A DNA stretch of 64,000 nt, filler included, from Octopus bimaculoides (GCF_001194135.2; 7 parts of 6 records of this genome joined end to end with filler, not necessarily neighbours in it), one strand, 5' to 3'. Positions 1,373 through 26,565 are shown, counted from the whole stretch's first letter. Made by a program: numbers and translations. The notes: generated from the sequence alone by a model not told the origin.

Positions 1373-1462
1373 AGCTTACGGCTGTTTCTATTATAAGATT
1401 CTGTGGACTCGTAGTTGAATAGCTGAGTGCCTGAATAATATCCTATAGCTTCATCAGAGCTG
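1373..1462 (-). ncRNA. Type I hammerhead ribozyme-like motif (degenerate stem II) in a Penelope-like terminal repeat
   Basis: Minus strand reads CAGCT-CTGATGA-A-GCTATAGGAT...ATCTTATAAT-A-GAAAC-agcc-GT-A-AGCT: core, GUA triplet and a 4-bp stem I. Confidence 0.6.
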
Positions 1463-1542
1463 ACTTTCTTTCTGGTAATACCTTCCCTGAATATTGCACA
1501 AATGTAATTCTTTTTCCCAAATAAATTGCACTTCGTATTCAG

Positions 1543-1623
1543 GGCTCTGATGAAGCTGTAGAATGTTGTTCAGGCACTTGACTAGGAGTCCACTGCATCC
1601 TATAGCAGAAACAATTGTGAGCT
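1543..1623 (+). ncRNA. Type I hammerhead ribozyme-like motif, probably inactive (GUG at cleavage triplet)
   Basis: GGCT-CTGATGA(1547-1553)-A-GCTGTAGAATG..30 nt..CATCCTATAGC-A-GAAAC(1608-1612)-aatt-GT-G-AGCT. Stem II pairs 10/11; helix III ACAATTGT is palindromic. Confidence 0.65.
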
Positions 1624-1835
1624 GATGAGGTTCATAACACAACTGGTTTTTCCTTTGTCATCTCATTTTCTTATTATCGCTCTGTACTTGTCTAACACTT
1701 CATTCTGAAGCATCCATATATTGAGTTCTACCCCAGGTTAGTCTCATATATATATGTGTGTGTGTGAATGAAAATAAAAATAAAAATTTAAAAATATATA
1801 CAAAAAAAGGGTTTTGTATGATCGTGTACAGAGGA

Positions 1836-2098
1836 ATATATTATTTAAAAGAGTTCCAACTCTGTCTGTTTTTTATGTTTTATTTATATTCTTATAAAAT
1901 TGATGTGGGATATAGAATATGGAATATATAATATAATATAAATGGTAAAATGAAAAATGGAATGAAGTGTTGAATGTCTTATTGAATATATGAAATATTG
2001 AGTATTAAATATAGAGAATCAAATATATAAAGAAAATCAAAAGAATATAAATAAAATATAAAAAACAGACAGAGTTGGAACTCTTTTAAATAATATAT
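1836..2098. repeat. Foldback element, 58-bp inverted arms
   Basis: 1836-1893 is the reverse complement of 2041-2098 with one mismatch; TA-rich flanks. Confidence 0.85.
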
Positions 2099-2120
2099 AT
2101 ATATATGAGAAAAGGCATAA

Positions 2121-2376
2121 ATAATGGGCTTTACATATTTCTATATTTCTGCATCTTTGACTTACAGCTGTTTCTGAAATGCATTATAGGTGCATTCTTG
2201 CTTCTGTTTAGCTCCAATAGTTGTGTAAACAATTTAAAAAGGTAAACAACCTTAACGAATACTACCATTTTCAGAAGATGATAGAGTAAATAAAACCATG
2301 AATGCACCAATAATGCATATCAGAAACAAGTGTAAGTCAAAGATGCAGAAATATAGAAACATGTAAAGCCCATTAT
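2121..2376. repeat. Foldback element, ~77-bp inverted arms carrying the 3' half of a hammerhead motif
   Basis: 2121-2197 is approximately the reverse complement of 2300-2376. The arms read outward GAAAC-agct-GT-A-AGTC (minus) and GAAAC-aagt-GT-A-AGTC (plus). Confidence 0.8.
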
Positions 2377-22351: not shown

Positions 22352-23178
22352 CAGGTTGCGGTGAATATATTGTCGTCTAAATTACGCACAAATGAAAATA
22401 ACACCGGCATCTCATTTTAACAGATATGTTTACCAAAATTACAAAAAAACAAAAAAAAAATATCTTGAAATACTAAAAAGTAAATTTATTCAATAAAATT
22501 GCCATCGGCTTCAACCACGGCCTCCAGACGTCTTCGTAATCTCCTACGACCTTTCTTTAAGTCGGTGAATGCTGCTATAATCCTTGCATTCAGTTCATCT
22601 TCGCTGTTACAAGGAGTTCTGTTGGTCTGTCACACAGCTGCACCCCACACATAATAATCAAGGGGGTTGCAGTCTGGGGAGTTAGATGGCCAGATATTAG
22701 GATTGATGTGGTCGCAGAAATTGCCTGACAGCCATGACTGGGTTCTCCTGCTTGTATGGCATGTTGCATAGTCCTATTGCCTGGCACTTAATGAAGACCT
22801 CCGCGTTCAGTGTGAGGCCTCGTGGGTAGATGAATGGAGGCATAACTTCGCCATCACTAGTGATAACGTTAAACACCATGATGTTGACTGGATGTTTAAT
22901 TTTTATCACTCTCGGTACATGTCCTCAGATTGCACTGTCCTCAGATTGACAGCTAAACACTCTGAAATGTTTGTATTGGAGCTTTCGGCTCTAATGCTAA
23001 GCTGTACAACCAGTATGTTGTTTCCAATTTTCTGGCGGAGCGATTTGCGTCATGGTGTTCTGTTTCTCACAGATTGTGCCCAACTAACCCTACTATGCTG
23101 TGTAGTCGACAAAATCAAAAACAAACAATGCGCAAAATTATAAATATAAAATGGTGACAAATTACCCATCGCACCCTG
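22352..23178 (-). mobile_element. Internally deleted Tc1/mariner element, likely DD37D (maT-like), with TIRs
   Basis: TA-CAGGTTGCGGTG... at left and ...CATCGCACCCTG-TA at right. Minus strand encodes HPVNIMVF..ITSDGEVMPPFI and IWPSNSPDCNPLDYYVWGA. Confidence 0.8.
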
Positions 23179-24329
23179 TATAATTCTCGTCACTGGTGAA
23201 AAATATGCAGAATATTTTATACAGATAAACCTAGCATCTAGAAAGCCGTTCTCGAAAATACATTGTTTACTATGTTTTTCAACATATTCCATATTTCAAT
23301 TTTAGTTCTCTCTCTCTCTCTCTCTCTCCCTCTCTCTCTCTCTCTCTCTCTCTCTCTCTATATATATATATATATATATATATATATATATATATANNNN
23401 NNNNNNNNNNNNNNNNNNNNNNNNNNNNNNNNNNNNNNNNNNNNNNNNNNNNNNNNNNNNNNNNNNNNNNNNNNNNNNNNNNNNNNNNNNNNNNNNNNNN
23501 NNNNNNNNNNNNNNNNNNNNNNNNNNNNNNNNNNNNNNNNNNNNNNNNNNNNNNNNNNNNNNNNNNNNNNNNNNNNNNNNNNNNNNNNNNNNNNNNNNNN
23601 NNNNNNNNNNNNNNNNNNNNNNNNNNNNNNNNNNNNNNNNNNNNNNNNNNNNNNNNNNNNNNNNNNNNNNNNNNNNNNNNNNNNNNNNNNNNNNNNNNNN
23701 NNNNNNNNNNNNNNNNNNNNNNNNNNNNNNNNNNNNNNNNNNNNNNNNNNNNNNNNNNNNNNNNNNNNNNNNNNNNNNNNNNNNNNNNNNNNNNNNNNNN
23801 NNNNNNNNNNNNNNNNNNNNNNNNNNNNNNNNNNNNNNNNNNNNNNNNNNNNNNNNNNNNNNNNNNNNNNNNNNNNNNNNNNNNNNNNNNNNNNNNNNNN
23901 NNNNNNNNNNNNNNNNNNNNNNNNNNNNNNNNNNNNNNNNNNNNNNNNNNNNNNNNNNNNNNNNNNNNNNNNNNNNNNNNNNNNNNNNNNNNNNNNNNNN
24001 NNNNNNNNNNNNNNNNNNNNNNNNNNNNNNNNNNNNNNNNNNNNNNNNNNNNNNNNNNNNNNNNNNNNNNNNNNNNNNNNNNNNNNNNNNNNNNNNNNNN
24101 NNNNNNNNNNNNNNNNNNNNNNNNNNNNNNNNNNNNNNNNNNNNNNNNNNNNNNNNNNNNNNNNNNNNNNNNNNNNNNNNNNNNNNNNNNNNNNNNNNNN
24201 NNNNNNNNNNNNNNNNNNNNNNNNNNNNNNNNNNNNNNNNNNNNNNNNNNNNNNNNNNNNNNNNNNNNATATATATATATATATATATATATATATACAT
24301 AAACTTATATATATATATATGTGTGTGTG

Positions 24330-24594
24330 TGTGTGTGTGTGTATGTGTGTGTGTGTATGTATGTATGTATGTATGTATTTGTGTGTCTGTGTTTGTCCCC
24401 CTGCCATCGCTTGACACCGATGTTGGTGGGTTTACGTCCCTGCAATTTAGCGGTTCGGTTAAAAAGACAGATAGAATAAGTACTAGGCTTACAAAGAGTA
24501 AGTCCTGGGTTCTATTCGTTCAACTAAAGGCGCTACTCTAGCATGGCCGGAGTCAAATGGCTGAAACACATAAAAGAATAAGTGAATAAAAGAA
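24330..24594 (+). mobile_element. SINE family B, 3' half
   Basis: TGTCTGTGTTTGTCCCC..CATCGCTTGACA..TAGCGGTTCGG..GACTAAAGGCG-like body. Confidence 0.8.
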
Positions 24595-26296
24595 TGTGTG
24601 TGTGTATGTGTGCATATGTATGTAGCATCTACTTCACTATTCGGGTACATTCTTCTAGTAAATTGTCTTCAGCTTATGAGGTACGGTGTTCCCCTATTAG
24701 AAAAGCATATTATGGTTCCCCTAGATTGCTTTTTTATCTTTTATATGTATTTACCCGAGCAAATAATCTGATTATTAAGGTGCTTTATATCGGTGTTTCG
24801 CGCTCAAAGCGCACCTCAATAAAGGAACACGTCACACCATTCGCTTGAACGGCTGAGTGAATATACTGATAGATCTCACTACCTGTGCTCCAAACACAAA
24901 ACTAAATGAACTGGCAGCAATTTGTAACAGGTCCGAAAATATAAAGATTACTGCGTAATATATTTCACTCTCAACACGAAATTATTTCCCTTTGATCAGA
25001 ATATTAAAATGTTGTAGTATATCACTCTTAATTAATGGGATAATGAATCTCGTAAAGGTATTTACAGATTTAACCCTCTGTGAGAATGCCTCACGCTTGT
25101 TTATCATCAAATAAAATACACTTGATCAAGCGGATGTAGGACTTGCGTGTGTTTTGTTGATTAATAGCCGAAATTCTGTGGAGGTAATATGCAAGACAAC
25201 AAAGGATTTCCTTTCATTTATCGATGAACAATAGAAAGCATAACGTGTTGTATAGGGTCCCTAATATAAACTGTCGTCTCACATTGGATTATACACATTT
25301 TTATCATACATTTCTATGTTTTGTTTCAGCTTAAATCTTGTGTAAAAAAAAACACTTATAAACAAATACATATAATTCGCCATTTATACTATGAAGGTAT
25401 GTCTTCATCACAGAGAACAAACAATGCAAAATTTAAAGTTTCTGAATCCCTAGTCTAAGCCTTCAACACTTCCATAATCAACACCAATTTGTAAAACTGT
25501 CAATTTAAATGTTATTCATTTAGAAAGGAAATTGGGAATAAGATGAAATTTAATTTAAACGAGTAATATTTGTAGGTTATACAGAAATAAACAGAGCTGC
25601 CTGAGAGCCATGAAAATAAAGGCAGAAATAATCGATATTAATTATGGTGACTCGAAGAGATAAATAACTATTCACAAGAATAATACATGACAGTCATTTT
25701 TATTTTGTAATAATTGAACCGCTTTAATATAACTACGTAATTAATAGCTTTGGTTGCAATACATCTAGATTATGTAGAAAGGAAATAAAAGATAAAGAAA
25801 GCAATAATTAACCAACGGTGGGATACACCAATCACACCAAGAAAGCAACTTCATTGTTCAATATTCAATATTCAATACATGATAAAGAAGCTTGAACATT
25901 ATATACAATACCCATATCAGATCTGAGCGACGAATGGATGAACGAGGTTTATGTGATTGGAAGACAGAGTTTGATGACTATATACATTTACACACGAACA
26001 CACACATACACACACACATATATATATATATATATATATATATATATATANNNNNNNNNNNNNNNNNNNNNNNNNNNNNNNNNNNNNNNNNNNNNNNNNN
26101 NNNNNNNNNNNNNNNNNNNNNNNNNNNNNNNNNNNNNNNNNNNNNNNNNNNNNNNNNNNNNNNNNNNNNNNNNNNNNNNNNNNNNNNNNNNNNNNNNNNN
26201 NNNNNNNNNNNNNNNNNNNNNNNNNNNNNNNNNNNNNNNNNNNNNNNNNNNNNNNNNNNNNNNNNNNNNNNNNNNNNNNNNNNNNNNNNNNNNNNN

Positions 26297-26370
26297 AAGA
26301 AGAAGAAGAAGAAGAAGAAGAAGAAGAAGAAGAAGAAGAAGAAGAAGAAGAAGAAGAAGAAGAAGAAGAA
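26297..26370. repeat. (GAA)n microsatellite
   Basis: Pure GAA run adjoining a gap. Confidence 0.95.
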
Positions 26371-26565
26371 ATAAAATGGAGATTGGGAACTTAATTGTTT
26401 ATTACTAACAGAAAATTGGTCGTCTTCAATTACAACCGTTTGAATTAATACTCGATGAAACTTATGTTTATTGAGCATAAATTGAAACAGCTGTAAGTGA
26501 AGGTGTCCAATTTGCTGTTAATAATAAGCAATTTTTAACTTCCCAATCTCTATTTTTGTTTCTTC
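26366..26565. repeat. Diverged foldback element with hammerhead-like motif
   Basis: 26366-26456 is approximately the reverse complement of 26470-26565; GAAAC-agct-GT-A-AGTG at 26484-26499. Confidence 0.65.

Follow-up and report, generated by a model that had tools for sequence, protein, structure and literature searches.

Background

Penelope-like elements (PLEs) constitute the closest described counterparts of four inverted repeats analyzed here in a 64,000-nucleotide stretch of DNA from Octopus bimaculoides (GCF_001194135.2; seven parts of six records joined end to end with filler, hereafter called the window). Insertions of PLEs are 5'-truncated and often have an adjoining inverted copy and a one-sided tail of 30-40 bp (PMC8557442; PMC8969392). 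Head-to-head repeats with junction palindromes are the commonest PLE arrangement and have been read as the result of self-priming (PMC3846280). The PLE protein nicks AT-rich DNA and reverse transcription begins at two internal sites, which gives rise to the tail (PMC11167929). Hammerhead ribozymes are located about 100-170 nt from PLE 3' ends, PLEs show a preference for (TA)n, and in Penelope-13_HM an antisense hammerhead lies within an inverted copy (supplement of PMC8557442). Most genomic hammerhead motifs have been ascribed to truncated PLEs, and pairs of minimal hammerheads, 100-700 bp apart and on opposite strands, were reported from Schistosoma in 2014 (PMC4209133). The retrozyme cycle, by comparison, requires two ribozymes on the same strand (PMC7229834; 10.64898/2026.07.22.740005).

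The four repeats of the window are fold-backs whose arms carry outward-reading hammerhead sequences, whole or partial. They are most probably dead insertion products of PLEs, each likely formed once, at insertion. A preliminary description of the window, made from the sequence alone, had already linked them to PLEs, and this link is well supported by the hammerhead near the outer end, the one-sided tail, the junction palindromes and the microsatellite targets.

Layout of the inverted repeats

Inverted repeats were present at all four sites of the preliminary description, and their extents are taken here as 1324-1741, 2101-2396, 12264-12738 and 26363-26567 (elements 1 to 4, representing families 1 to 4). 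Counted over global alignment columns, arm identity was 106/139 (76%) in element 1, 90/100 (90%) in element 2, 220/230 (96%) in element 3 and 72/91 (79%) in element 4. An extra, third copy of family 1 was found at 981-1123. The head-to-head, inverted and truncated layout is common to all four elements, and varying junctions were observed for family 3 only. The parts are listed below with coordinates and strand.

981-1123, plus strand: third copy of family 1, direct relative to the right arm of element 1, tail included; stops at an assembly gap
1324-1465, minus strand: left arm of element 1, its type I hammerhead being decayed (core 1457-1451; GAAAC...GTA 1388-1377), without tail; adjoins an (AC)n run
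1466-1542, no strand: element 1 spacer with a short inner hairpin, single copy within the window
1543-1672, plus strand: element 1 right arm, decayed hammerhead (core 1547-1553; GAAAC...GTG 1608-1619)
1673-1741, plus strand: element 1 one-sided extension (tail, about 68 nt), recurring in the family 1 copy at 981-1123; (TA)n(TG)n comes next
2101-2210, minus strand: left arm of element 2, in which the hammerhead is limited to its 3' half (stem-loop and GAAAC-AGCT-GTA 2174-2163); outer end within (TA)n
2287-2396, plus strand: element 2 right arm, decayed 3' half only (2323-2334)
12217-12263, minus strand: element 3 one-sided tail; reads support 12263 to about 12234
12264-12493, minus strand: element 3 left arm, intact type I hammerhead 12383-12304
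12494-12509, plus strand: element 3 junction, a 15-nt extra copy of the arm start forming a local palindrome
12510-12738, plus strand: element 3 right arm, intact type I hammerhead (core 12619-12625; GAAAC-GTAC-GTA 12687-12698), no tail, followed by (TA)n
26363-26449, minus strand: element 4 left arm, starting inside helix II, decayed 3' half; outer end meets a (GAA)n run and a gap
26450-26567, plus strand: element 4 right arm, starting at helix I; hammerhead 26450-26498 minus one core base

Two of the extents given previously were revised: the left arm of element 3 continues past 12264 into the tail, and the repeat of element 1 holds up to 1672, beyond which 1673-1741 is a one-sided extension. 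The view that the four repeats are of unrelated sequence was confirmed, apart from the ribozyme motif. Local alignment scores between families were 14-31 versus shuffle means of 16-20, and scores within families were 56-411. The few cross-family scores that exceeded the shuffles were among elements 1, 2 and 4, which have the 3' half of the motif in common. Element 3 is the youngest of the four, and is young.

A one-sided tail was found in element 1 (about 68 nt) and element 3 (about 47 nt), the outer boundary of the latter, 12217, resting on a candidate 7-bp target duplication. Junction palindromes were located at 12494-12509 and 975-990. The latter is a perfect 16-bp palindrome, inside which the family 1 copy at 981-1123 starts, at the base after the cleavage triplet. 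Every element has at least one outer end within a microsatellite run of (TA)n, (AC)n or (GAA)n, which is a weak test as microsatellites are common in the window. Three arms, namely the two of element 1 and the right one of element 4, start at helix I. Three others, the two of element 2 and the left one of element 4, start at or inside helix II; truncation points therefore cluster at structured RNA. The spacers of elements 1 and 2 were also considered as captured local DNA, an idea that was dropped when no match above noise was found elsewhere in the window.

Hammerhead motifs

The full type I descriptor gave two matches in the window, both in element 3 (12619-12698, plus strand; 12383-12304, minus strand). 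In 100 local dinucleotide shuffles the mean was 0.01 and two matches were never obtained. The shorter motif GAAAC-palindrome-GT occurred seven times, five of them inside the four elements, versus 0.45 per shuffle. The Rfam model Hammerhead_1 covered all of its 45 positions at 12613-12705 with a 53-nt insertion in loop II, at a score of 16 bits, which is under the gathering score of 34. A whole-window Rfam scan gave no hammerhead among the 150 of 193 matches listed, these 150 being microRNA-like chance matches on microsatellite hairpins.

The CUGANGA/GAAA/NUH core with helices I-III is complete in both arms of element 3, and the predicted cut of the right-arm hammerhead is after 12698. A complete hammerhead was absent from the right arm of element 1, from element 2 and from the left arm of element 4. 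In element 1 the two core halves are found in each arm, and each arm is damaged: the cleavage triplet of the right arm is GUG, which is not NUH, and helix III of the left arm is non-palindromic. The unpaired bases flanking helix II of element 1 have counterparts among published PLE hammerheads (supplement of PMC8557442). Element 4 has one near-complete motif, its CUGANGA core being short of one base, and its left arm is a decayed 3' half. The cleavage triplets lie 40-72 nt from the short end, with the hammerhead near the 3' end on the sense strand. The statement that each arm holds all or part of a type I hammerhead thus stands in its "all or part" form, with intact motifs only in element 3, decayed ones in elements 1 and 4 and 3' halves in element 2. 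The accompanying claim of differing palindromes within a preserved geometry had been put too strongly. The palindrome ACAGCTGT is shared by elements 2 and 4, in a single arm of each, and ACAATTGT belongs to only one arm of element 1, the other arm having ACAGCCGT.

The two ribozymes of family 3, one from each arm, were predicted to form a double hammerhead with an 8-bp intermolecular helix III (-62.1 kcal/mol). For a homodimer of the right arm an alternative fold of equal energy was predicted. Pairing of a family 3 ribozyme with the antisense arm was predicted at -154.6 kcal/mol, versus -62.1 kcal/mol for the dimer, and the whole of element 3 as a 230-bp hairpin of -372.7 kcal/mol. The ribozymes are predicted to be silent in place, locked by the antisense arm, because read-through in either direction makes the antisense arm first.

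An exact pattern scan for the family 3 ribozyme gave no match in metagenome contigs. The one match in a viral contig comprised 20 bases with no hammerhead core upstream and was taken as chance.

Two further features lie beside the cleavage triplets. In families 2 and 4 (2162-2167, minus strand; 26493-26498) the triplet overlaps GTAAGT, a perfect splice-donor hexamer, with a pyrimidine-rich end after it; some PLEs have an intron beside the ribozyme. In family 1 (1625-1708; 986-1066) an ATG a few bases past the cleavage triplet opens a hydrophobic frame of 27 codons. The same stop ends this frame in two copies, one of which has an early stop, and by eye the changes do not look selected.

Family 3 in public reads

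Of 24 public sequencing runs listed, 20 contain some of 12000-12920. Reads and contigs were placed on 12470-12920 at 82% likeness, using the DNA contigs of X1 (organism A), the DNA contigs of X14 (labelled as organism B) and the raw reads from two RNA runs of organism A, both from one study and with about 6% of each used. The numbers of contigs placed were 1,978 for X1 and 1,908 for X14. In X1 the summed contig depth, which according to the tool's own warning is no copy number, rose from the 5' end (about 1,000 at 12502-12517) towards the 3' end (about 960,000 at 12678-12709; maximum 966,842, over the ribozyme), and a step lies immediately ahead of helix I. The gradient suggests 5' truncation, and the depth, compared with 27.6 at the junction, suggests, roughly, that family 3 is very abundant, on the order of ten thousand copies.

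At the junction (12470-12501) X1 had a summed depth of only 27.6, and the remaining three runs had a depth of 0. In other copies of family 3 the joints lie elsewhere, in opposite-strand or gapped fashion: at 12513/12664 in 137 and 110 RNA reads, and at 12547/12659 and 12571-12573/12706 in contigs of X14. Given the single-locus depth of its junction and the different junctions of other copies, this fold-back did not multiply as a whole unit. Behind 12738, loose ends in all four runs (20, 22, 152 and 151 records) match the window to the left of 12264 on the minus strand. Other groups of loose ends, behind 12748-12754, run from 12738 through (TA)n into unlike flanks. Family 3 therefore has two 3' ends, one for each arm of element 3.

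In the RNA runs 1,321 and 1,105 reads were placed, of which only 8 and 0 were at least 99% alike, and the two strands were about equally represented. Most of these reads come from one diverged fold-back elsewhere in the genome, recognized by the joint 12513/12664. No pile-up of read ends was observed at the predicted cut 12698/12699 in the two complementary DNA libraries (about 6% of each), such libraries being a poor test. Among the family 3 joints and loose ends listed, no head-to-tail joint was seen (the tail is not in the reference).

About half of the RNA reads over 12697 carry a C that would spoil the cleavage triplet, being either a variant of one arm or editing on the opposite strand.

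Proposed origin of the fold-backs

From the arms, their motifs, the tails of elements 1 and 3 and, in family 3, the junctions and the two 3' ends, we infer an enzyme, a parent element and an order of steps. A PLE reverse transcriptase with a GIY-YIG endonuclease, encoded elsewhere, would nick an AT-rich or microsatellite target. Copying of the element RNA would then start at either of two sites downstream of the hammerhead and extend over 90-280 nt, the structured ribozyme often being where it halts. From the other start site a second copy, in inverted orientation, would be made and joined via a short palindrome. The product would have two arms with ribozymes reading outward, one arm being longer by the tail, and both copies would have halted within the terminal repeat.

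Several observations weigh against this origin. The tails of about 47 and 68 nt exceed the published 30-40 bp and were seen in only two of the four elements, 1 and 3. No firm target duplication was found, the 7-bp AT-rich sequence at 12210-12216 and 12746-12752 around element 3 being a candidate, nor did an empty site turn up. Both arms of element 2 lack the CUGANGA core. No parent with reverse transcriptase and GIY-YIG domains was found within the 218 frames of the window. The one published octopus PLE hammerhead that was encountered, Hydra-1_Obim, is of different sequence, and two short motifs of the window had no match in the available part of the supplement of PMC8557442. The read tests cover family 3 only and are subject to the stated limit on contig depth. 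Furthermore, a number of family 3 copies end near 12510-12513, upstream of which their sequences are unlike, and no consistent continuation upstream of 12510 was found among the loose ends listed.

Alternative explanations

The common stop near 12510 raises the possibility that family 3 derives from a short (about 230-280 nt) non-autonomous master, consisting of the PLE terminal repeat alone and moved in trans, with the fold-back still made at insertion. This is a refinement of the PLE insertion reading and no replacement for it, and is given tentatively, as a possible but less than even prospect. Stops only a few bases apart are seen in both arms of the window, in the dominant RNA locus (12513) and in the loose-end groups of X14 and X21 (12510), and the sequence upstream of the stops is unlike (agreement 0.49 in X14). 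Retrozymes are reported to descend from PLE terminal repeats, with many solo copies (10.64898/2026.07.22.740005), and terminal repeats alone are enough for movement in trans (PMC3846280). However, a full-length element could have a terminal repeat with its 5' edge at this boundary, and the summed depth over 12502-12533 is at most about 1% of the peak, so few copies reach that 5' end.

For element 2, and perhaps element 4, an unrelated palindromic repeat, such as a miniature inverted-repeat transposable element (MITE), with a chance likeness to the 3' half of a hammerhead was considered and found unlikely. The missing core of element 2 would fit such a repeat, and hammerhead-free fold-backs also occur in the window at 1836-2098, 19927-20001, 31041-32102 and 61002-61220. 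Against this, elements 2 and 4 have a common 15-nt stretch over helix III and the triplet, and GAAAC-palindrome-GT is about 15-fold above the shuffles, facing outward and lying about 55-70 nt from the end in both elements. In element 2 a stem-loop directly precedes the motif, at the place of helix II. A MITE is recognized by many copies with both ends and the same interior; family 3 gave no such picture, its junction being at single-locus depth.

The preliminary description had gone further and proposed several fold-back families of retrozyme-like PLE derivatives, a reading taken here to mean that entire hairpin units are amplified via ribozyme-cut or circular RNA. Both arms of element 3 do have intact ribozymes predicted to be competent as dimers, and family 3 RNA is present in both RNA runs (1321 and 1105 reads). 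Nevertheless, amplification of the whole unit has been largely refuted for family 3 and is now considered very unlikely for the families in general: element 3 has its junction at single-locus depth and other copies have theirs at different points, with no head-to-tail joint among the joints listed and no pile-up of read ends at 12698/12699. A transcript of the unit would have one sense ribozyme within a predicted 230-bp hairpin, in which antisense pairing is favored over the dimer by the energies given above. Ribozymes on opposite strands cannot excise a unit-length RNA, and since any transcript of a fold-back holds one sense ribozyme, the retrozyme cycle is excluded. Moreover, retrozymes are defined as direct tandem repeats (PMC7229834), unlike the inverted arms of the window.

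Finally, fragmentation of the short-read assembly, with its many gaps, and the tendency of hairpins to form chimeras might suggest that the fold-backs are library or assembly artefacts, an exceedingly improbable explanation as the arms differ by 4-24%, unlike a chimera product, and the element 3 junction is covered in a public DNA run (possibly not independent of the assembly).

Host gene and other repeats

The window has 35% G+C and 5,716 N, and is rich in microsatellites and repeats. The coding screen comprised 218 stop-to-stop frames of at least 60 amino acids, free of low complexity and of N. Neither a reverse transcriptase nor a GIY-YIG Pfam family matched any of these 218 frames, in agreement with the earlier remark that no such open reading frame (ORF) lies beside the elements. 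The only significant matches were a channel and two mariner-type transposase fragments. The channel frame, 2626-3057, matched KCNH2 with an E value of 2e-60, which identifies the neuronal channel gene noticed earlier as an ERG/KCNH2-like potassium channel.

2626-3057, plus strand: frame that includes an internal exon, from S4 to the pore, of the ERG/KCNH2-like potassium channel

Sequences near 6378 and 7288, located by short motifs, are further exons of the ERG-like channel. With short motifs of this kind as queries, no channel exon was found beyond 7330 within the window. Elements 1 and 2, both upstream of an internal channel exon, are likely intronic.

Besides the four elements, the window contains a fold-back at 1836-2098 with arms 70% alike and the outer 55 bp near-perfect, which has a (TA)n run in common with element 2 and no hammerhead motif. 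It is a candidate MITE or ribozyme-less PLE end. The fold-back at 61002-61220 has 77-bp arms, 97% alike, and CCCTAA/TTAGGG-like short repeats in its spacer, again with no hammerhead motif. At 31041-32102, arms of about 210 bp, 79% alike, enclose a 650-bp spacer; no Pfam match was obtained in the frames scanned, and the repeat is probably an old non-autonomous DNA element. A near-perfect short palindrome of about 75 bp at 19927-20001 showed no hammerhead core. Two decayed mariner-type elements (matches to HTH_48 and Transposase_1) lie at 32734-33630 and about 190-870, the first with long terminal inverted repeats. A direct repeat of 368 bp (3114-3481 and 3492-3859), 100% identical and flanking a 10-N gap, is most likely an assembly overlap artefact.

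Abundance, editing and significance

The five copies of the hammerhead families make up about 1.6 kb of 58,284 called bases (2.7%). The genome of Octopus vulgaris is reported to contain 6.83% Penelope-like sequence in 190 families (supplement of PMC13282606), and PLEs are reported to have expanded in coleoids (PMC8967140). The density, previously singled out as notable, is not borne out as such and needs no special cause, because 2.7% is set against 6.83% in Octopus vulgaris and against the coleoid expansion.

The sum of A>G and T>C among the listed differences was 28/61 and 27/62 in the RNA runs and 12/47 and 10/39 in the DNA contigs. Fisher tests for this excess gave p 0.13 for one pair and 0.027 pooled versus C>T and G>A. 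The excess is only a hint of editing; other copies or individuals could equally produce it, and the two RNA runs are one study.

Inverted Alus are a major source of A-to-I-edited double-stranded RNA in primates. By extension, family 3 might be a short, protein-free PLE parasite of about ten thousand copies, for which head-to-head insertion allows persistence in genes via an antisense-locked ribozyme, the fold-backs being a major source of A-to-I-edited double-stranded RNA. This is rather improbable, and were it true, host RNA would stay uncut and each insertion would be a ready-made 200-bp hairpin. Should fold-backs be enriched in introns relative to solo sense copies and dominate editing sites, a quirk of integration would be tied to the editing landscape of the host. 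As it stands, the finding is at the level of annotation: four more families of PLE ends in a PLE-rich genome. Such ORF-less insertions are easily misfiled as MITEs or microRNA hairpins. For assay, element 3 provides a dimer-type hammerhead that is intact. The geometry of the fold-backs further leads one to expect silenced ribozymes, as well as ADAR substrates within host transcripts.

Comparison with known systems

The layout of the four elements is in print. No paper on these particular families was found in the literature searched; subscription journals, bioRxiv supplements, Repbase and Dfam were outside its scope, and names may exist there. Among the literature found on octopus hammerheads, only PMC8557442 concerned such elements. 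The two short motifs also gave no match in the available part of one supplement of PMC13282606.

The non-LTR (long terminal repeat) retrozymes (Cervera and De la Pena 2020, PMC7229834; Li et al. 2026, 10.64898/2026.07.22.740005) resemble the window elements in being short and non-coding, with a type I hammerhead and a tie to PLE terminal repeats. They differ in being direct tandem repeats with a unit of 150-450 nt, which gives unit-length and circular RNA; the inverted pairs of the window cannot do so.

Poseidon PAc of Anolis carolinensis (Frangieh et al. 2024, PMC11167929) likewise has two 3' ends past the hammerhead and AT-rich targets. RNA-seq read ends at the ribozyme cut are absent for PAc, which may be compared with the lack of a pile-up in the complementary DNA libraries used here. 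The ORF of PAc starts in helix II and runs through the tail, whereas no start of a continuing ORF was recognized in the window elements.

The minimal and palindromic type I hammerheads that metazoan PLEs carry (Cervera and De la Pena 2014, PMC4209133) have the same short helix I and a small palindromic helix III fit for dimers. They also fall into many families of sequence in one genome and occur as pairs on opposite strands 100-700 bp apart, which were ascribed to truncated PLEs. The sequences of the window belong to other families, which the earlier paper does not describe.

The fit is closest to the PLE insertions described in 2021 (PMC8557442) and by Arkhipova et al. in 2013 (PMC3846280). 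Unlike those, the window elements are without an ORF, have tails of about 47 and 68 nt instead of 30-40, and family 3 has a long loop II, with 61 nt between the core halves. Common to both are an inverted, 5'-truncated, head-to-head copy, a junction palindrome, a tail on one arm, a hammerhead near the 3' end and a (TA)n or other microsatellite target. The target duplication is hard to see in the published insertions, and for element 3 it is a 7-bp candidate. The fold-backs of the window are thus most likely fresh examples of this published insertion product and not a new kind of mobile element.

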